The position numbers were made by a program, and so were the translations under genes. A DNA stretch of 64,000 bases from a virus (taxonomy: Duplodnaviria > Caudoviricetes): IMG/VR virus record IMGVR_UViG_3300028909_000001. One strand, 5' to 3'. Under the pieces are notes generated by a model. That model was not told the origin of the DNA and did no database searches. It saw only the letters and a program-made list of their open reading frames with translations. This document shows positions 6,883-62,245 of this stretch, one piece after another. Position 1 is the stretch's first letter. Every line of letters starts with the position of its first letter.

Positions 6883-7148
6883 ATGAATATATAGTAGGAG
6901 ATGAAGTTTCTGTAACTCTTAATTCTGGTAATCGAGTTAAAGCAAAGATTATAAGTATTGATAATGACGAGCTTGCACTAAAGTTTGTAGAGTATACAGA
7001 GCTTGTAAACATTGATGCAAGCGGTGGTTCAAGCGGTGGTTCAGGCGGTTGGCCTACTATTCATAGACACATAAATGAGGTAATCTCTTTAGTATCTAAA
7101 ACTAGAAAAGAAAATCCTTTTGATAGGAAACTGGAGTTTGATTTATGA
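6879..7148 (+). CDS. KOW/SH3-like small protein with tail (DRKLEFDL)
   Basis: MNEYIVGDEVSV N-terminus; shared tail. Confidence 0.7.
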   Translation: MNEYIVGDEVSVTLNSGNRVKAKIISIDNDELALKFVEYTELVNIDASGGSSGGSGGWPTIHRHINEVISLVSKTRKENPFDRKLEFDL

Positions 7149-7612
7149 AAATAACAAAAATAGCTAATAGATGGTATGACGAAAACAATAATAGTTGGTC
7201 TACAGAAGAACTAGCTACTCTATACTCACCTACCCTAACTAATTGTAGATGGTGTAGAGATTGTAGAGATTGTAATTATTGTTGTCTTTGTAGTGATTGT
7301 AGTAATTGTAGTAATTGTAGTGGTTGTAGTGGTTGTAGTGGTTGTAGTAATTGTTATAATTGTAATTGGTGTAGTAGTTGTGGTAGTTGTAATAGTTGTT
7401 ATAAATGTACTGATTGTAATGATTGTAGAGGTTGTAGTAATTGTAGTAGTTGTTATAGTTGTAGTTATTGTGGTAATTGTAAAGATTGTTTTCACTGCTA
7501 TTTATGTAAAATTTGTAGTAACCTTAGATTTTATGAAAAAGGATCACAATTAAATACTATTATAAGAGTGGAGGCTAATGCTTTTGACAGAAAATTAGAA
7601 ATAGACTTATGA
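7145..7612 (+). CDS. Cys-x-x repeat protein with tail (DRKLEIDL)
   Basis: Conserved head MKITKIANRWYDENNNSW...YSPTLTNC, (CxX)n repeats, tail. Confidence 0.85.
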   Translation: MKITKIANRWYDENNNSWSTEELATLYSPTLTNCRWCRDCRDCNYCCLCSDCSNCSNCSGCSGCSGCSNCYNCNWCSSCGSCNSCYKCTDCNDCRGCSNCSSCYSCSYCGNCKDCFHCYLCKICSNLRFYEKGSQLNTIIRVEANAFDRKLEIDL

Positions 7613-10800: not shown

Positions 10801-11325
10801 ATGACAATAACTAAAAGAGACGATAGATGGTATGATGAACGAGGTAATAGTTGGAGAACAGAAGAATCAGCTACTACATACTCACTTACCCTAATTAATT
10901 GTAGAGATTGTAGTAATTGTAATAATTGTATAGGTTGTAGTAGTTGTAGTAGTTGTAGTGGTTGTAATAGTTGTAGTGGTTGTAGTACTTGTTATAATTG
11001 TAGTGGTTGTAGTGCTTGTAATATTTTTAATTATTGTCATGATTGCAGTAGTTGTTTTAATTGTTATAGTTGTACTGATTGTAGTAATTGTAGTGATTGT
11101 AATTATTGTAGTCGTTGTAGTGATTGTAGTAGTTGCAGTAATTGTATTGATTGTAATATTTGTAGTGATTGTAGTTATTGTAGTAGTTGTAGTAGTTGTA
11201 CTAACTGTAATCATTGTGAATTGTGTGGAAAATTAGTTGATCAAAAGTTTCAAGAAAAGATTAAAGACCCATTAATTAGGACAGAGTTTAATGTAGAAAA
11301 CAGGTTACTAGAACCAGACTTATAA
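10801..11325 (+). CDS. Cys-x-x repeat protein with tail (NRLLEPDL)
   Basis: Head, repeats and tail. Confidence 0.85.
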   Translation: MTITKRDDRWYDERGNSWRTEESATTYSLTLINCRDCSNCNNCIGCSSCSSCSGCNSCSGCSTCYNCSGCSACNIFNYCHDCSSCFNCYSCTDCSNCSDCNYCSRCSDCSSCSNCIDCNICSDCSYCSSCSSCTNCNHCELCGKLVDQKFQEKIKDPLIRTEFNVENRLLEPDL

Positions 11326-14006: not shown

Positions 14007-14414
14007 ATGACAATAACTAAAAGAGACGATAGATGGTATGATGAACGAGGTAATAGCTGGGATACTGAAGAAGCAGCTACTTTATACTCACCTACCCTAA
14101 CCGATTGTACTAATTGTTATAATTGTTATAGTTGTACTAATTGTAGTCATTGTAGTAGTAGTTGTATTAATTGTAAAGATTGTAGTAGTTGTAGAGATTG
14201 TTATAATTGTAGTAATTGTAGTAGTTGTAGAGATTGTTATTATTGTAGTAATTGTATTAATTGTAATAGTTGTAGAAGATGTAGTCGTTGTGATAGCTGT
14301 AGTGATTGTAGTGAGTGTATTGGTTGTAATGACTGGACTAATAATAAGAAATATGAACCAGTAATTAGACCATTTATAGATTGTAGAGATAGACTATTAG
14401 ACCCTTATTTATGA
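14007..14414 (+). CDS. Cys-x-x repeat protein with tail (DRLLDPYL)
   Basis: Head, repeats and tail. Confidence 0.85.
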   Translation: MTITKRDDRWYDERGNSWDTEEAATLYSPTLTDCTNCYNCYSCTNCSHCSSSCINCKDCSSCRDCYNCSNCSSCRDCYYCSNCINCNSCRRCSRCDSCSDCSECIGCNDWTNNKKYEPVIRPFIDCRDRLLDPYL

Positions 14415-15799: not shown

Positions 15800-15873
15800 C
15801 CAGATATAGCGTAATAGTAGCGTACAAGCCCTGGGAGCTTGTGGTGTCTGTGCAACTCAGACTATCTGGACCA
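15800..15873 (+). tRNA. tRNA-Pro(TGG)
   Basis: CCAGATA/TATCTGG-A-CCA; loop CCTGGGA. Confidence 0.85.
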
Positions 15874-15878
15874 TTATT

Positions 15879-16164
15879 TACTAGTTACCGGGTCCGAAAC
15901 TGTCCTTAACCAGACAAAGTAGGTACCAAATACAGATAGAGAACTGTAGTCAACAACGCACACTTAGTAAATGGAGTGTGGACGGAAATGAGCCAGGGAA
16001 TCTGGATGATACCGTGCAGCCAACAACTTAGTAATAAGTCTGTGGACATGATAGGTGAAGGTCAGGATAACAACCTGGACAAGTCCTAAAGGGTTATGTA
16101 AATAGTATAGCAATATACAGCCCAGTACCTTGAAATATAGGTGTGTTGAGCCTGGTAATTAGTA
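15879..16164 (+). ncRNA. Putative structured ncRNA (~285 nt) between tRNA-Pro and tRNA-Ile
   Basis: 14-bp terminal helix TACTAGTTACCGGG/CCTGGTAATTAGTA; internal hairpins, two with GNRA loops (GTAA, GCAA); no ORF in the track. Confidence 0.6.
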
Positions 16165-16170
16165 AAACAT

Positions 16171-16244
16171 ACACACGTAATTTAATAGTAGAATATTTGC
16201 CTGATTAGCGAATTGTACTTGTGCAACTCAAGTCGTGTGTACCA
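16171..16244 (+). tRNA. tRNA-Ile(GAT)
   Basis: ACACACG/CGTGTGT-A-CCA; TTTGC-CTGATTA-GCGAA. Confidence 0.8.
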
Positions 16245-21541: not shown

Positions 21542-21994
21542 ATGAAACGACCTACAAGAAAAGCAACATTAGAAGATTCAGTAACGTATATTCTAGCAGA
21601 GATTAAAGAATTAGAAGCTTGTCAATATCTGCTTACGCAGATCATTTATAAACTTACTAATGATTATGCACCGGATGATACTCTTTCTGATAGTGTAGCT
21701 AAGATAACTGAAAGAATAACTCGTAAAAAGTGCAGGCTGTTTGAACAATTAGCCACAATTTCTGTTCTTAGCCCAACTGCTGAAGCTAAGTTAAAACAAA
21801 GATTAATCGATAAATTAAATAAATCTGGTTCATATTTCAGCAATTTTGTTAATCAATCTTGGACTGATATCTCTACCAACCCTGAAGAATTAAAGCAAAC
21901 TATAAAAGATCAGATGAGTAAAGCATTACAAGTAAGAGAGGATGAGGTAGATATGATAGCAGTACCTAAAAGGAAGTTAGAACCAGATCTATGA
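21542..21994 (+). CDS. Helical hypothetical protein with tail (KRKLEPDL)
   Basis: Shared tail; ATGA coupling. Confidence 0.7.
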   Translation: MKRPTRKATLEDSVTYILAEIKELEACQYLLTQIIYKLTNDYAPDDTLSDSVAKITERITRKKCRLFEQLATISVLSPTAEAKLKQRLIDKLNKSGSYFSNFVNQSWTDISTNPEELKQTIKDQMSKALQVREDEVDMIAVPKRKLEPDL

Positions 21995-22446
21995 AGATAA
22001 CTAAACGAGAAAATGATAGATGGTATGACGAAAACAATAATAGTTGGGAAACTAAAAAATTAGCTACTTTACACTCACCTACCCTAACTAATTGTAGTTG
22101 GTGTGGTGGTTGTAGAGATTGTAGAGATTGTAGAGATTGTAGAGATTGTAGAGATTGTAGTAATTGTAGTGATTGTAGTAATTGTAGTTGGTGTGGTGGT
22201 TGTAGTTATTGTATTTGTTGTAATCAGTGTATAAGTTGTAGTTATTGTAGTGGTTGTAGTAATTGTAGTTATTGTAGTCATTGTAATAATTGTAGTGATT
22301 GTGGTTATTGTCATTATTGTAGAAAATGTGAAAATTGTTATCTCGTTAGTAGTCTTGAAAATTACGCCCCACTTCTTAAATTTGAACCATCTTCAACTAG
22401 ACCAGAATTAGATATTAATGATAGAAAACTAGAACCAGATCTATGA
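21991..22446 (+). CDS. Cys-x-x repeat protein with tail (DINDRKLEPDL)
   Basis: Head, repeats and tail; 3' end nearly identical to 19273. Confidence 0.85.
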   Translation: MKITKRENDRWYDENNNSWETKKLATLHSPTLTNCSWCGGCRDCRDCRDCRDCRDCSNCSDCSNCSWCGGCSYCICCNQCISCSYCSGCSNCSYCSHCNNCSDCGYCHYCRKCENCYLVSSLENYAPLLKFEPSSTRPELDINDRKLEPDL

Positions 22447-22817
22447 AGATAACTAAACGAGAAAATGATAGATGGTATGACGAAAACAATAATAGCTGGG
22501 ATAGTGAAGAACTAGCTACTTTCTATTCACCTACCCTAACTACTTGTAGTTATTGTAGTGGTTGTAGTTATTGTAGTAATTGTAGTAGTTGTAGAGATTG
22601 TAGTTATTGTAATCTTTGTAATGATTGTACTCGTTGTACTAATTGTGATTATTGTGATAATTGTAGTCATTGTGGTTATTGTAGTGATTGTAGTGATTGT
22701 TTAGGTTTATATAATTATCGAGATAAAGAAAATTTAGAACCTCAAGTAAGAATATTACCTCCAACATCAAGAATAGAATTAGATATTAATGATAGGAAAT
22801 TAGAACCAGACTTATGA
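22443..22817 (+). CDS. Cys-x-x repeat protein with tail (DINDRKLEPDL)
   Basis: Tandem paralog. Confidence 0.85.
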   Translation: MKITKRENDRWYDENNNSWDSEELATFYSPTLTTCSYCSGCSYCSNCSSCRDCSYCNLCNDCTRCTNCDYCDNCSHCGYCSDCSDCLGLYNYRDKENLEPQVRILPPTSRIELDINDRKLEPDL

Positions 22818-26083: not shown

Positions 26084-26491
26084 ATGACAATAACAAAAAT
26101 AGCTAATAGATGGTATGACGAAAACAATAATAGCTGGTTATCAGAAGAAGCAGCTACTCAATACTCACTTACCCTAACTAATTGTAGTAGGTGTAGTGAT
26201 TGTAGTAATTGTATTGATTGTAGAGATTGTAGTAATTGGTGTAGTAATTGTAATAATTGTAGAGATTGTAGTTATTGTATATATTGTAGTGATTGTAGTT
26301 ATTGTATATATTGTATTGATTGTAATATTTGTAGTGATTGTAGTAGTTGTATTAATTGTAGTAATTGTAGTGATTGTAGAGATTGTAGTAGTTGTATTGA
26401 TTGTAGTGATTGTACTAATAATAAGAAGTATGAACCAGTAACTAGACCATTTATAGACTGTACTAACAGACTATTAGAACCAGATTTATGA
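26084..26491 (+). CDS. Cys-x-x repeat protein with tail (TNRLLEPDL)
   Basis: Head, repeats and tail. Confidence 0.85.
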   Translation: MTITKIANRWYDENNNSWLSEEAATQYSLTLTNCSRCSDCSNCIDCRDCSNWCSNCNNCRDCSYCIYCSDCSYCIYCIDCNICSDCSSCINCSNCSDCRDCSSCIDCSDCTNNKKYEPVTRPFIDCTNRLLEPDL

Positions 26492-26736
26492 CAAATATCA
26501 CAGTACGAGATAAATATGACCAATCTATAGAAGTAGGAAATAATGTTATAGTAAAGTATTATGGCAGTATTTATAAAGGAACTGTCATTAATATTAAACT
26601 AATAAATAGTACTGGGACTAGTACCAGTGATTTTTGTGCTCATTTAAGAGATTATTGGATTAAAGTTATCATCCATTCACCTATTAGAGGAGATAAAGAG
26701 ATAACTAGTAAATCAGGAGAAATAATAAGAATATGA
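26488..26736 (+). CDS. KOW/SH3-like small protein (no tail)
   Basis: IEVGNNVIVKYYGSIYKGTV. Confidence 0.55.
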   Translation: MTNITVRDKYDQSIEVGNNVIVKYYGSIYKGTVINIKLINSTGTSTSDFCAHLRDYWIKVIIHSPIRGDKEITSKSGEIIRI

Positions 26737-27005
26737 AATATAATCTAGTTCAAATTCGTAGTCATATAAAGAATCAACTTCGTGTTTCCTTTGAAGAAAT
26801 TGAAATAGAAGGTGAAGTAATAGAAATCAGTTCACCAATGAATACTGGATTTTATTATTGCCTGGCTAAAAGAGGCAAGAAATATGCTTTTGATAGATTA
26901 AAGAAACATTTAATAAAAATGTATGATAAAGAAATTACAAAGATAACAAAAGAGTTAGACATGCTTAAAGCCGTAGAATATCCACATCGAAAAATAAGAC
27001 ATTAA
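26733..27005 (+). CDS. Hypothetical protein whose tail lies out of frame
   Basis: DINDRKLEPDL* is encoded at 26998-27033 in the +1 frame. Confidence 0.6.
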   Translation: MKYNLVQIRSHIKNQLRVSFEEIEIEGEVIEISSPMNTGFYYCLAKRGKKYAFDRLKKHLIKMYDKEITKITKELDMLKAVEYPHRKIRH

Positions 27006-27029
27006 TGATAGAAAGTTGGAACCAGACTT

Positions 27030-27461
27030 ATGACAATAACAAAAAGAGCTGATAGATGGTATGACGAAAACGGTAATAGTTGGATAACTGAAGAACTAGC
27101 TACTACTGACTCTCCTACCCTAACTAATTGTTATAATTGTAGAGGTTGTAGTAATTGTAGAGATTGTAGTTATTGTATATATTGTAGTGATTGTAGTAAT
27201 TGTATTAGTTGTATTAGTTGTAGTGATTGTAGTAATTGTAGTAATTGTTATAGTTGTATTGATTGTAGTAATTGTAGTGATTGTTATAGTTGTAGAGATT
27301 GTAGTAGTTGTATTGATTGTAGTAGTTGTAGTGGTTGTAGAGATTGTAGTAATTGTAATAATTGTATTTATTGTAGTGATTGTACTAATAATAAGAAGTA
27401 TGAACCAGTAACTAGACCATTTATAGACTGTACTAACAGACTATTAGAACCAGATTTATGA
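27030..27461 (+). CDS. Cys-x-x repeat protein with tail (TNRLLEPDL)
   Basis: Last 92 nt identical to those of 26084. Confidence 0.85.
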   Translation: MTITKRADRWYDENGNSWITEELATTDSPTLTNCYNCRGCSNCRDCSYCIYCSDCSNCISCISCSDCSNCSNCYSCIDCSNCSDCYSCRDCSSCIDCSSCSGCRDCSNCNNCIYCSDCTNNKKYEPVTRPFIDCTNRLLEPDL

Positions 27462-40130: not shown

Positions 40131-41573
40131 ATGCAAAAAATAAAAGCTATAATCTTAGTTGGATTGAACTATGGTGATGAGGGGAAGGGATCTGTAACTG
40201 ATAGTCTAGTCCAACACTTCAAGTCAGATTTGGTGGTTCGCTATAATGGTGGATTCCAAGCTGCCCACAATGTCCACAATGAGACAGGACATCACACCTT
40301 CCATCAGTTCGGTTCTGGTACCTTGAGTGGGGCTAGGACTTATATAGGTAGTGAAGTTATTATCTCGCCTAAATTGATGATGGATGAGGCTGACAGCTTG
40401 TATAAGCTTGGAGTAGATAAACCATTATCTCTCATACATATATCGCCTAACTGCAGGATTACTACGCTATACCATATAGCGTTGAATCAAATGAGAGAAT
40501 TAGCTCGCACAAATGTACACGGCAGTACTGGAAATGGTATTGGAGTTACTGCAGAATTAGCTAGACAACGTAGTAGTTGGGTCTTGAGAGTAAGAGATTT
40601 AAGTAAACATAAAAGTGATGTCCTCCAGATTCTTAATTCAATCTATGAATACTGTTTTTTGAAATGCGTTGAATTGCAACATGATTATAAATTGGAAAGT
40701 CAAGCAGTAGAGGACTTGATGCTTACCTTTAACATACCTCAATTAAACAACCAACTATACGATATTTACCTTGAATGGTTAAATCAGGTCAACGTTTGCC
40801 ATAGTCTTGATATTATCAAAGACAGTAACCTTCCTATTTTTGAAGGAGCACAAGGAGTATTGTTGGATAAACTTCATGGTTTTCATCCTTACACTACCTG
40901 GTCTGATACTACTCCTACCTATGCTATGGATATGTTGTATATATTAGGTATCCCTATACAGAATACTTATAAGTTAGGCATTACCAGGACTTTTATGACT
41001 AGGCATGGTAATGGTCCTCTTCTGACTGAAACAAATGATTTGAATGCTTTAATAGCACATGATCATAATAAGACAGGTAAATTCCAAGGATGTCTTAGGG
41101 TAGGTAATTTAGACTTGATGGCTTTGCAATATGCTATTCAAAAGTGCGGTGGTCTTAATGGTCTGGCAGTTACTCACTGTGATTATTTAAGTAATCGTGA
41201 AGTACGTACAGTTTGCTGGACTTATGCTGGTATAGATTTGCTTAGTTACAATTGCAAGGAAGAAGCTGGTTTGGAAGCCTGGAATCTTACTAAGGCCTAC
41301 TCTAAGAATAAGGCCCTGCTATATGAAGTTCCAGATTTATTAGCTGAAATTCAAAAGGTTACGAAGTTACCTATAGTAATAACTTCACACAGTAAATTCA
41401 CAAAAGACAAATTATATATGGGACTAGAACAAAATGAACTCCCGGCAACGTATACTCCAGTTAAAACTGCAGTACCGATTGTTGAGGAAGTGAGCAATCC
41501 TGAAGAAATTCAGATTAAACAAGCTGATACGTTTCAACAAACTGAAGCAGCAAAACCAACAACAACTAATTAA
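40131..41573 (+). CDS. purA: Adenylosuccinate synthetase-like protein
   Basis: GLNYGDEGKG, VRYNGG.QAAH, HGSTGNGIG, FEGAQG and TRHGNGP. Confidence 0.85.
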   Translation: MQKIKAIILVGLNYGDEGKGSVTDSLVQHFKSDLVVRYNGGFQAAHNVHNETGHHTFHQFGSGTLSGARTYIGSEVIISPKLMMDEADSLYKLGVDKPLSLIHISPNCRITTLYHIALNQMRELARTNVHGSTGNGIGVTAELARQRSSWVLRVRDLSKHKSDVLQILNSIYEYCFLKCVELQHDYKLESQAVEDLMLTFNIPQLNNQLYDIYLEWLNQVNVCHSLDIIKDSNLPIFEGAQGVLLDKLHGFHPYTTWSDTTPTYAMDMLYILGIPIQNTYKLGITRTFMTRHGNGPLLTETNDLNALIAHDHNKTGKFQGCLRVGNLDLMALQYAIQKCGGLNGLAVTHCDYLSNREVRTVCWTYAGIDLLSYNCKEEAGLEAWNLTKAYSKNKALLYEVPDLLAEIQKVTKLPIVITSHSKFTKDKLYMGLEQNELPATYTPVKTAVPIVEEVSNPEEIQIKQADTFQQTEAAKPTTTN

Positions 41574-49903: not shown

Positions 49904-50315
49904 GGGCGTGTAACATAATCGACTTATTTTAGAAAGATATGACAGCAAGCGGTAGAAGCATTCTCGGCTACCTAAAAATGAATGCAAACGTTAAATGCTA
50001 ACAAAATGAGCATTCTTGATGAAGCGATGGCGATTTCTGCGCAAGCGGATGAGTTCGTTCCCTCCGTCAATGAAGTGTTGGTTTAACCAATACCGGTTCC
50101 TGGTCTGAAACTTATGGGACTAACGAACCGTAATCTATAAGTGAGTTGTGATAGTTTAGTCTATGTACTATTACAATCTAATTAACAAGGACAAAATACT
50201 GGAATAGCTAAGGTTGAGTCAGTTCCTTATTCTAGTATTAAAATTCTGGCTAAGCTTGTAGAAATCATATTGTTTTGAAGTAAACACGTTGGTGAGAATC
50301 CAACCACGTCCACCA
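49904..50315 (+). ncRNA. ssrA: tmRNA
   Basis: GGGCGTG/CACGTCC-A-CCA with G3:U70; 5' ...ATCGAC; tag ORF 49997-50086 ANKMSILDEAMAISAQADEFVPSVNEVLV*. Confidence 0.85.
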
Positions 50316-61792: not shown

Positions 61793-62245
61793 ATGACAAT
61801 AACAAAAATAAACAATAGATGGTATGACGAAAACAATAATAGCTGGTTATCAGAAGAAGCAGCTACTCAATACTCACCTACCCTAACTAATTGTAGAGAT
61901 TGTAGAGGTTGTAGTAATTGTGATGATTGTAGTTATTGTGATGATTGTAGTAATTGTAGTGGTTGTAGTACTTGTAGAGGTTGTATTAGTTGTAGTGTTT
62001 GTAGTGTTTGTAGTGATTGTAGTAGTTGTAGTAGTTGTAGTGGTTGTAATAGTTGTAGTGGTTGTAGTACTTGTTATAATTGTAGTGGTTGTAATAGTTG
62101 TAGTAGTTGGTGTGATCATTGTATTAATTGTAATAATTGTAGTAGTTGTAGTGGTTGTAATGACTGGACTAATAACATGAAATATGAACCGGTAATTAGA
62201 CCATTTATAGACTGTACTAACAGACTATTAGAACCAGACTTATGA
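61793..62245 (+). CDS. Cys-x-x repeat protein with tail (TNRLLEPDL)
   Basis: Last 94 nt identical to those of 29190. Confidence 0.85.
   Translation: MTITKINNRWYDENNNSWLSEEAATQYSPTLTNCRDCRGCSNCDDCSYCDDCSNCSGCSTCRGCISCSVCSVCSDCSSCSSCSGCNSCSGCSTCYNCSGCNSCSSWCDHCINCNNCSSCSGCNDWTNNMKYEPVIRPFIDCTNRLLEPDL

Follow-up and report, generated by a model that had tools for sequence, protein, structure and literature searches.

Why do phage tRNA arrays hold ornate RNAs that are not tRNAs? We take up this question with an RNA of a size practical for cryo-EM and pull-down, located in a 64,000-nt stretch of viral DNA (hereafter, the window) that is part of a large AT-rich phage genome (34% GC). ARAGORN finds 17 tRNAs in the window, and Rfam adds a tRNA-Ile(GAU) and a tmRNA (49904-50315, 78 bits; no SmpB was found among the ORFs scanned). 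The window also encodes a UvsX-like recombinase, a DNA ligase, an RNA ligase and Pth2. The tRNA-Ile(GAU), which ARAGORN does not call, has U at position 37 and shares with tRNA-Pro an unusual T-arm (G-U-G-C-A-A-C).

A first-pass annotation had described the spacer between these two tRNAs (Table 1) as a discrete, ornate ncRNA embedded in the tRNA operon. The description is borne out: positions 15877-16166 overlap no ORF of at least 50 aa, are folded, and are conserved in other phages. The spacer has 41% GC and a folding z of -2.97, with 3 of 200 shuffles equally stable. Its closing helix, P1, had been put at 14 bp; the helix is real and its length was understated, at 16 bp including two G-U pairs, or 17 bp with an extra U-G pair. 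Among 20,000 shuffles of the spacer none reached 17 bp end to end (the maximum was 14, reached by three), and end-to-end helices of at least 14 bp at the ncRNA's spacing turn up at 18 (0.14%) of the 12,740 window positions sampled. The flanking tRNAs, said to bound the RNA exactly, do so to within 3-4 nt: it begins 3 nt past the tRNA-Pro CCA and ends 4 nt ahead of tRNA-Ile(GAU). All the internal hairpins named in that annotation are present where it placed them. Five of the six have counterparts in homologs (P3, P5, P6b, P7 and P8c), and the sixth, with the GCAA loop, belongs to an insertion found only in the ncRNA's own lineage. No promoter signal above chance was found near 15877-16166, which would fit transcription together with the tRNA block.

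Two near-identical strains (L216/L009 and L215; identity of 97-98% in the main blocks) also carry the ncRNA, with a 1-nt indel in an unpaired linker as the sole change. A 27-codon frame starting in P6 was considered as a coding sequence and rejected, as the indel shifts it in these strains. Elsewhere, differences among the strains cluster in mutually similar ORFs of phrog_15341, an unknown family matched by eleven of the ORFs scanned (e.g., 14007-14414), which suggests a recombining paralog array. The repeat blocks concerned lie at 7145-7612, 10801-11325, 21991-22817, 26084-27461 and 61793-62245. The top PHROG match of the ORF at 40131-41573 is labelled PurZ; despite this label the product is probably an ordinary adenylosuccinate synthetase, because its N-terminal motif retains the PurA aspartate.

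Table 1. Positions of the ncRNA, its helices and the flanking tRNA genes, in window coordinates.
Feature	Position	Strand	Description
tRNA-Pro(UGG)	15800-15873	+	Encoded CCA ending at 15873; upstream boundary of the ncRNA
Full-length RAGATH-33-like ncRNA, 290 nt	15877-16166	+	Closed by the terminal helix P1
P1 5' strand	15877-15892	+	Pairs with 16151-16166; closing helix forms in 28/28 aligned members
P2 variable hairpin	15894-15923	+	Core 15901-15904 with 15913-15916
P3 hairpin	15931-15948	+	Conserved 8-nt purine-rich loop; compensatory pairs, including in the window sequence
P4 5' strand	15950-15954	+	Pairs with 16145-16149; closes large junction; 6/6 pairs double-changed in homologs
P5 hairpin	15959-15980	+	Loop T-loop-like in homologs, diverged in window copy
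P6, most conserved element	15982-16015	+	Internal loop 15986-15992 and 16006-16011; cap hairpin 15993-16005
P7 variable hairpin	16026-16039	+	GNRA cap in window copy
P8 helix	16044-16086	+	Conserved internal loop; 7-nt apical loop 16067-16073
Inserted lineage-specific helix, 33 nt	16091-16123	+	9-nt bulge, GCAA tetraloop; absent from the other 27 aligned members
P9 hairpin	16127-16142	+	Conserved UGAAA T-loop signature
P1 3' strand	16151-16166	+	Pairs with 15877-15892
tRNA-Ile(GAU)	16171-16244	+	Encoded CCA; Rfam 51 bits; downstream boundary of the ncRNA

Assignment to RAGATH-33

At its cut-offs Rfam returned nothing for 15877-16166, including for the families that the first-pass annotation had singled out (GOLLD, ROOL, RNase P, raiA and group I intron). 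A relaxed search placed RAGATH-33 (RF03102) on 15913-16013 with 17.9 bits (E 0.51), against a gathering cut-off of 120.4 bits for a model that spans 113 positions; alone, such a match would mean little. The pattern common to this match and the RF03102 model was used to fetch RAGATH-33 RNAs from large phage contigs. Those from gut phages are ~235-285 nt long, have a long terminal helix and extend ~120 nt beyond where the Rfam model stops. Fifteen of them give a consensus of 66 pairs, of which 25 show double changes. Two gut-type copies also occur in Mollicutes and Eubacteriales MAG contigs.

Core covariance models whose seeds exclude the window sequence, and whose calibration is rough, recover the window copy well above anything else: model R1 (gut members) scores 15956-16113 with 42 bits (E 1e-8; runner-up 11 bits), and model R2 (16 diverse members) gives the window ncRNA 52.5 bits (E 1e-9; runner-up 14.5). 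A search by nhmmer, with a model that also lacks the window sequence, gives E 5e-5. Homologs with covariation, named earlier as a way to check the RNA, were found: further patterns yielded ten divergent members below the Rfam cut-off, which share a covarying fold with the gut members. Three more patterns returned, apart from near-identical strains and gut-type members, just chance coding matches, and one returned no matches at all. Seeds were chosen with a motif from the window ncRNA, a selection bias that is offset by reciprocal recovery, as members found through the P8/P9 pattern have the P6 motif and members found through the P6 pattern have P8/P9. A GC-rich, structured-RNA-like segment on another contig (L002:7700-8350, + strand) has a P6-like pattern; the family model does not match it.

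Neither the window copy nor the ten divergent members have the 5' start motif or the P2 sequence conserved in the RF03102 seed; in all of these P2 survives only as a variable hairpin. The window copy has the P6 loop with its capped hairpin and compensatory stems, the helix order of the family and a match to the full-core model, and it is a single copy in a tRNA array. Because the RNA scores far below the RF03102 cut-off and is nonetheless homologous, we file it as a divergent relative of this Rfam orphan. The first-pass annotation could not assign a family; the window ncRNA is a divergent member of an extended RAGATH-33 family, and not a wholly new class. The name RAGATH-33 was not found in the searchable papers, which include only a minority of subscription papers. 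As far as that literature shows, the complete extent and fold of the family, its divergent branches, its occurrence in tRNA arrays or behind its own promoter, and the insertion-bearing form are new.

No cultured carrier and no named host can be given for the family, since the RNA went unmatched when the ncRNA and three of its homologs were compared by blastn with 50,697 records of cultured phages. The RecA-like protein of the window matches cultured phages at <60% identity throughout, with the top of the matches listed at 25-33%.

Fold and covariation

Members of the family are 224-303 nt long. P1 closes a first junction with P2 (variable), P3 and P4, and P4 closes a second with P5, P6, P7 (variable), P8 and P9, plus one added helix in the window copy. 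The order P3, P4, P5, P6, P7, P8, P9 inside terminal P1 holds in the window copy, where the extra helix lies between P8 and P9. We are close to certain that the locus is a single-copy ncRNA gene of a ~225-305 nt family whose 5' half is the Rfam RAGATH-33 and which is built on P1-P4 four-way and P4-P9 junctions.

Across 16 homologs and 29 named pairs, 98.7% of cells are paired and 25 of the 29 pairs show double changes, in an alignment that was fitted to the model and in which relatedness inflates double-change counts; slid controls on the same alignment give 26-41% paired. The window copy contributes compensatory pairs of its own in P3, P6a, P6b, P8b and P8c, such as G-C for C-G in P3 and P6a, C-G in P8c, and G-C in P8b. 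It retains all positions with 99% conservation or higher, although P6 and the loop anchors among these positions are partly fixed by the row alignment procedure. The P6 internal loop is the best conserved part, with a 3' strand that is invariant in 28/28 members, and ~30 loop nucleotides are conserved across lineages with fully exchanged stems. From their sequences we infer that the loops of P3, P5, P8 and P9 resemble T-loops.

With its 33-nt inserted helix, diverged P5 loop and shifted P8 base, the window copy is among the most diverged members of the extended family. Its minimum-energy fold differs from the family fold at P6-P8 (-83 vs. -78 kcal/mol), and basal P8 pairing is weak in its single-sequence ensemble. 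Since the minimum-energy fold prefers another P6-P8 arrangement by ~5 kcal/mol, the family fold would need tertiary contacts or be one of two states.

A pseudoknot between CTGTCC and downstream GGAC segments had also been suggested. These segments sit in P2 and P8, and in the window copy the pairing amounts to 5 bp, which is at chance level (p=0.14). Pairing of P2 with the 3' side of P8 is longer in some relatives: 15 of the 17 gut members have 7-10 bp and four divergent members 6-9 bp, the remainder being at chance level. It is rejected as a family feature because natural variants break it while retaining P2 and the P8b pair; in some clades it may be an alternative fold.

Genomic context and possible roles

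tRNA genes are present at 27 of 28 loci, and each genome carries one copy of the RNA. In eleven members the 5' end lies no more than ~8 nt from the 3' end of a tRNA, and five (the window copy, L530, L397, L166 and L074) exactly fill a gap between two tRNAs. Another eight lie behind an upstream sigma70-like promoter, two of them detected by a looser pattern. Flanking tRNAs are thus not essential, several relatives having their own promoter instead; together, the members flush with tRNA 3' ends and those with promoters indicate that the RNA is itself the product made. These comparisons show the RAGATH-33-like RNA to be a conserved, independently transcribable folded RNA.

We found no neighbouring protein common across lineages and no fixed protein gene after the RNA. 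ROOL occurs in the same arrays at 6 loci; a search of three near-complete carrier phages, run without a positive control, did not find it. In five near-complete carriers, RNase P RNA was found in none, tmRNA above cut-off in one, a weak Ro60/TROVE match in one, and RNA ligase above cut-off in two; the window has no TROVE match. On one contig a YrlA-like Y RNA (L057:1687-1785, + strand; 44.5 bits, below cut-off) lies ~90 nt downstream of the RAGATH-33 RNA. On another, a weak HDV-like ribozyme match (L236:6781-6849, + strand; E 1.3) begins immediately downstream of tRNA-Leu, where a theta ribozyme would be expected. Co-transcription alone may explain why the RNA lies in tRNA arrays, a caution that Weinberg et al. 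(PMC5737381) raised for ROOL and GOLLD.

Bacterial tRNA maturation combines RNase P cleavage with 3' trimming (PMC2190699). The window ncRNA would be transcribed together with the Ser-Pro-Ile tRNA block, and an RNase P cut at the 5' end of tRNA-Ile, with 3' maturation at the tRNA-Pro CCA, would free it; release by tRNA processing is plausible. The long P1 helix would then shield both ends, so that the ncRNA accumulates as a stable RNA. This sequence of co-transcription, release, end protection and accumulation is likely.

What the released RNA does is a more tentative matter. It could act in trans as a compact, protein-independent scaffold, in which conserved A-rich internal loops and T-loop-like hairpins would lock a tertiary fold that offers a stacking surface to tRNA or the ribosome, helping phage translation to continue while tRNAs are being attacked or depleted by the host. 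In RNase P, interleaved T-loops form stacking contacts with the tRNA elbow (PMC11143913). We place the scaffold first because T-loop platforms bind the tRNA elbow in that enzyme and because tRNAs are the family's only constant neighbours; the whole chain, from release to support of translation, is uncertain. The T-loop-like loops may interdigitate or face outward, or may instead all serve internally, and no conserved stretch able to pair with the tRNA CCA end was seen. Behind the scaffold we rank, in descending order, an RNA-only assembly, a protein decoy, a ribozyme and a passive spacer. Several more specific ideas were rejected. A Ro60-type site at P1, L1-stalk mimicry and S8-site mimicry are resemblances that occur only in the window copy or clash with covarying stems; a role as partner of the catalytic half of a phage RNase P finds no RNase P RNA in the five near-complete carriers.

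An RNA-only oligomer or cage, as formed by ROOL, GOLLD, manA and EGFOA RNAs, that stores or shields small cargo is unlikely, though compatible with the scaffold. The family shares the genomic niche of ROOL and GOLLD, no protein partner was found, and RNAs under 200 nt are able to form cages (10.64898/2026.07.01.735769). One subgroup (L258, L422, L513, L521 and L530) has a self-complementary stretch of 6-8 nt in its P5 loop that could drive dimerisation; this stretch is absent from the window copy and the gut clade. Moreover, Watson-Crick loop-loop pairing is conserved nowhere family-wide, and none of at least 4 nt occurs in the window copy, leaving assembly to depend on A-minor or T-loop contacts.

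The invariant strand of P6 bears on a third reading, in which the ncRNA would act as a decoy or sponge: a host protein, such as a translation factor or a defence nuclease that targets RNA, would bind the P6 internal loop. Protein-binding sites often show conservation of this kind. We nevertheless regard a decoy as improbable: no protein gene follows the RNA, Ro60/TROVE has its single weak match among the five carriers, and a kink-turn, which needs a tandem G-A/A-G after a 3-nt bulge and fits the window copy, loses the G of this tandem in six divergent members (L421, L422, L513, L521, L530 and L535).

That the RNA is a ribozyme, cutting itself or processing the flanking tRNAs, is less probable still. 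RAGATH motifs are named for proximity to genes linked to self-cleaving ribozymes, and theta ribozymes, like 11 members of this family, abut tRNA 3' ends. However, the RNA ends in variable A/U-rich helices, its junction with the tRNA shows no conserved nucleotide, a promoter replaces the upstream tRNA in eight members, no Rfam ribozyme or RNase P model matches, and RNase P RNA is missing from all five near-complete carriers. Finally, a chance structure, or a passive folded spacer acting in cis to aid processing or stability of the tRNA transcript, would fit the exactly filled gaps and is largely refuted by the loop nucleotides conserved while stems were fully exchanged and by the stand-alone, promoter-driven copies.

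Comparison with known systems

Several established RNA classes were set against the window ncRNA. RNase P RNA gives no Rfam match up to E 10, and the candidate 3' strand for the P4 pseudoknot of that class, with its conserved regions I and V, varies without compensation. There is no group I intron match, and the ncRNA sits between two complete tRNAs, not inside a host gene. The raiA motif has no Rfam match, nor do bacterial Y RNAs (YrlA/YrlB), TROVE being absent from the window and weak in one of five carriers; for self-cleaving ribozymes (theta/HDV, hammerhead, twister) Rfam gives no catalytic-core match. The RNase P S-domain, T-box stem I and the L1 stalk share several T-loop-like loops with it, an analogy on which the proposed working model draws. 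Unlike those interleaved T-loop platforms, the window ncRNA has neither a P4 pseudoknot nor a catalytic core, and does not match them in Rfam.

Like ROOL (RF03087) and GOLLD (RF02032), it is an ornate phage RNA near tRNA islands with no known protein partner. Those RNAs are larger (ROOL ~580 nt, GOLLD >800 nt) and have several pseudoknots, whereas the window ncRNA is 290 nt and matches neither model; ROOL and the family share six arrays, yet are not obligate partners. It is possible, if doubtful, that full-length RAGATH-33 RNAs make up, alongside ROOL and GOLLD, a third class of ornate phage RNA and a compact one, with T-loops forming an outward tRNA/ribosome platform (or an RNA-only assembly) that phages would send out from their tRNA arrays to protect translation during infection. 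T4 species 1 and 2, stable RNAs of ~120-140 nt cut from a phage tRNA operon, are likewise non-tRNA products of such an operon and are shorter than the window ncRNA.

The closest comparison is with RAGATH-33 (RF03102) itself, which has a homologous P3 loop, P5, and P6 internal loop and hairpin, in the same phage tRNA-array setting. The window copy differs in the missing 5' start motif of the family and in its extra 33-nt helix. RF03102 stops just past P6, without P1, the P4 3' strand and P7-P9 (~120 nt). Because it covers the front half only, any earlier test of RAGATH-33 on Rfam boundaries alone would have used half the molecule. The 113-nt orphan fragment is now extended to a whole fold of ~225-305 nt that has defined ends and strong covariation and is found as at least 28 distinct sequences spread across diverse large phages. 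By these comparisons, 15877-16166 is a real, elaborately folded ncRNA that recurs in the tRNA clusters of many large phages.
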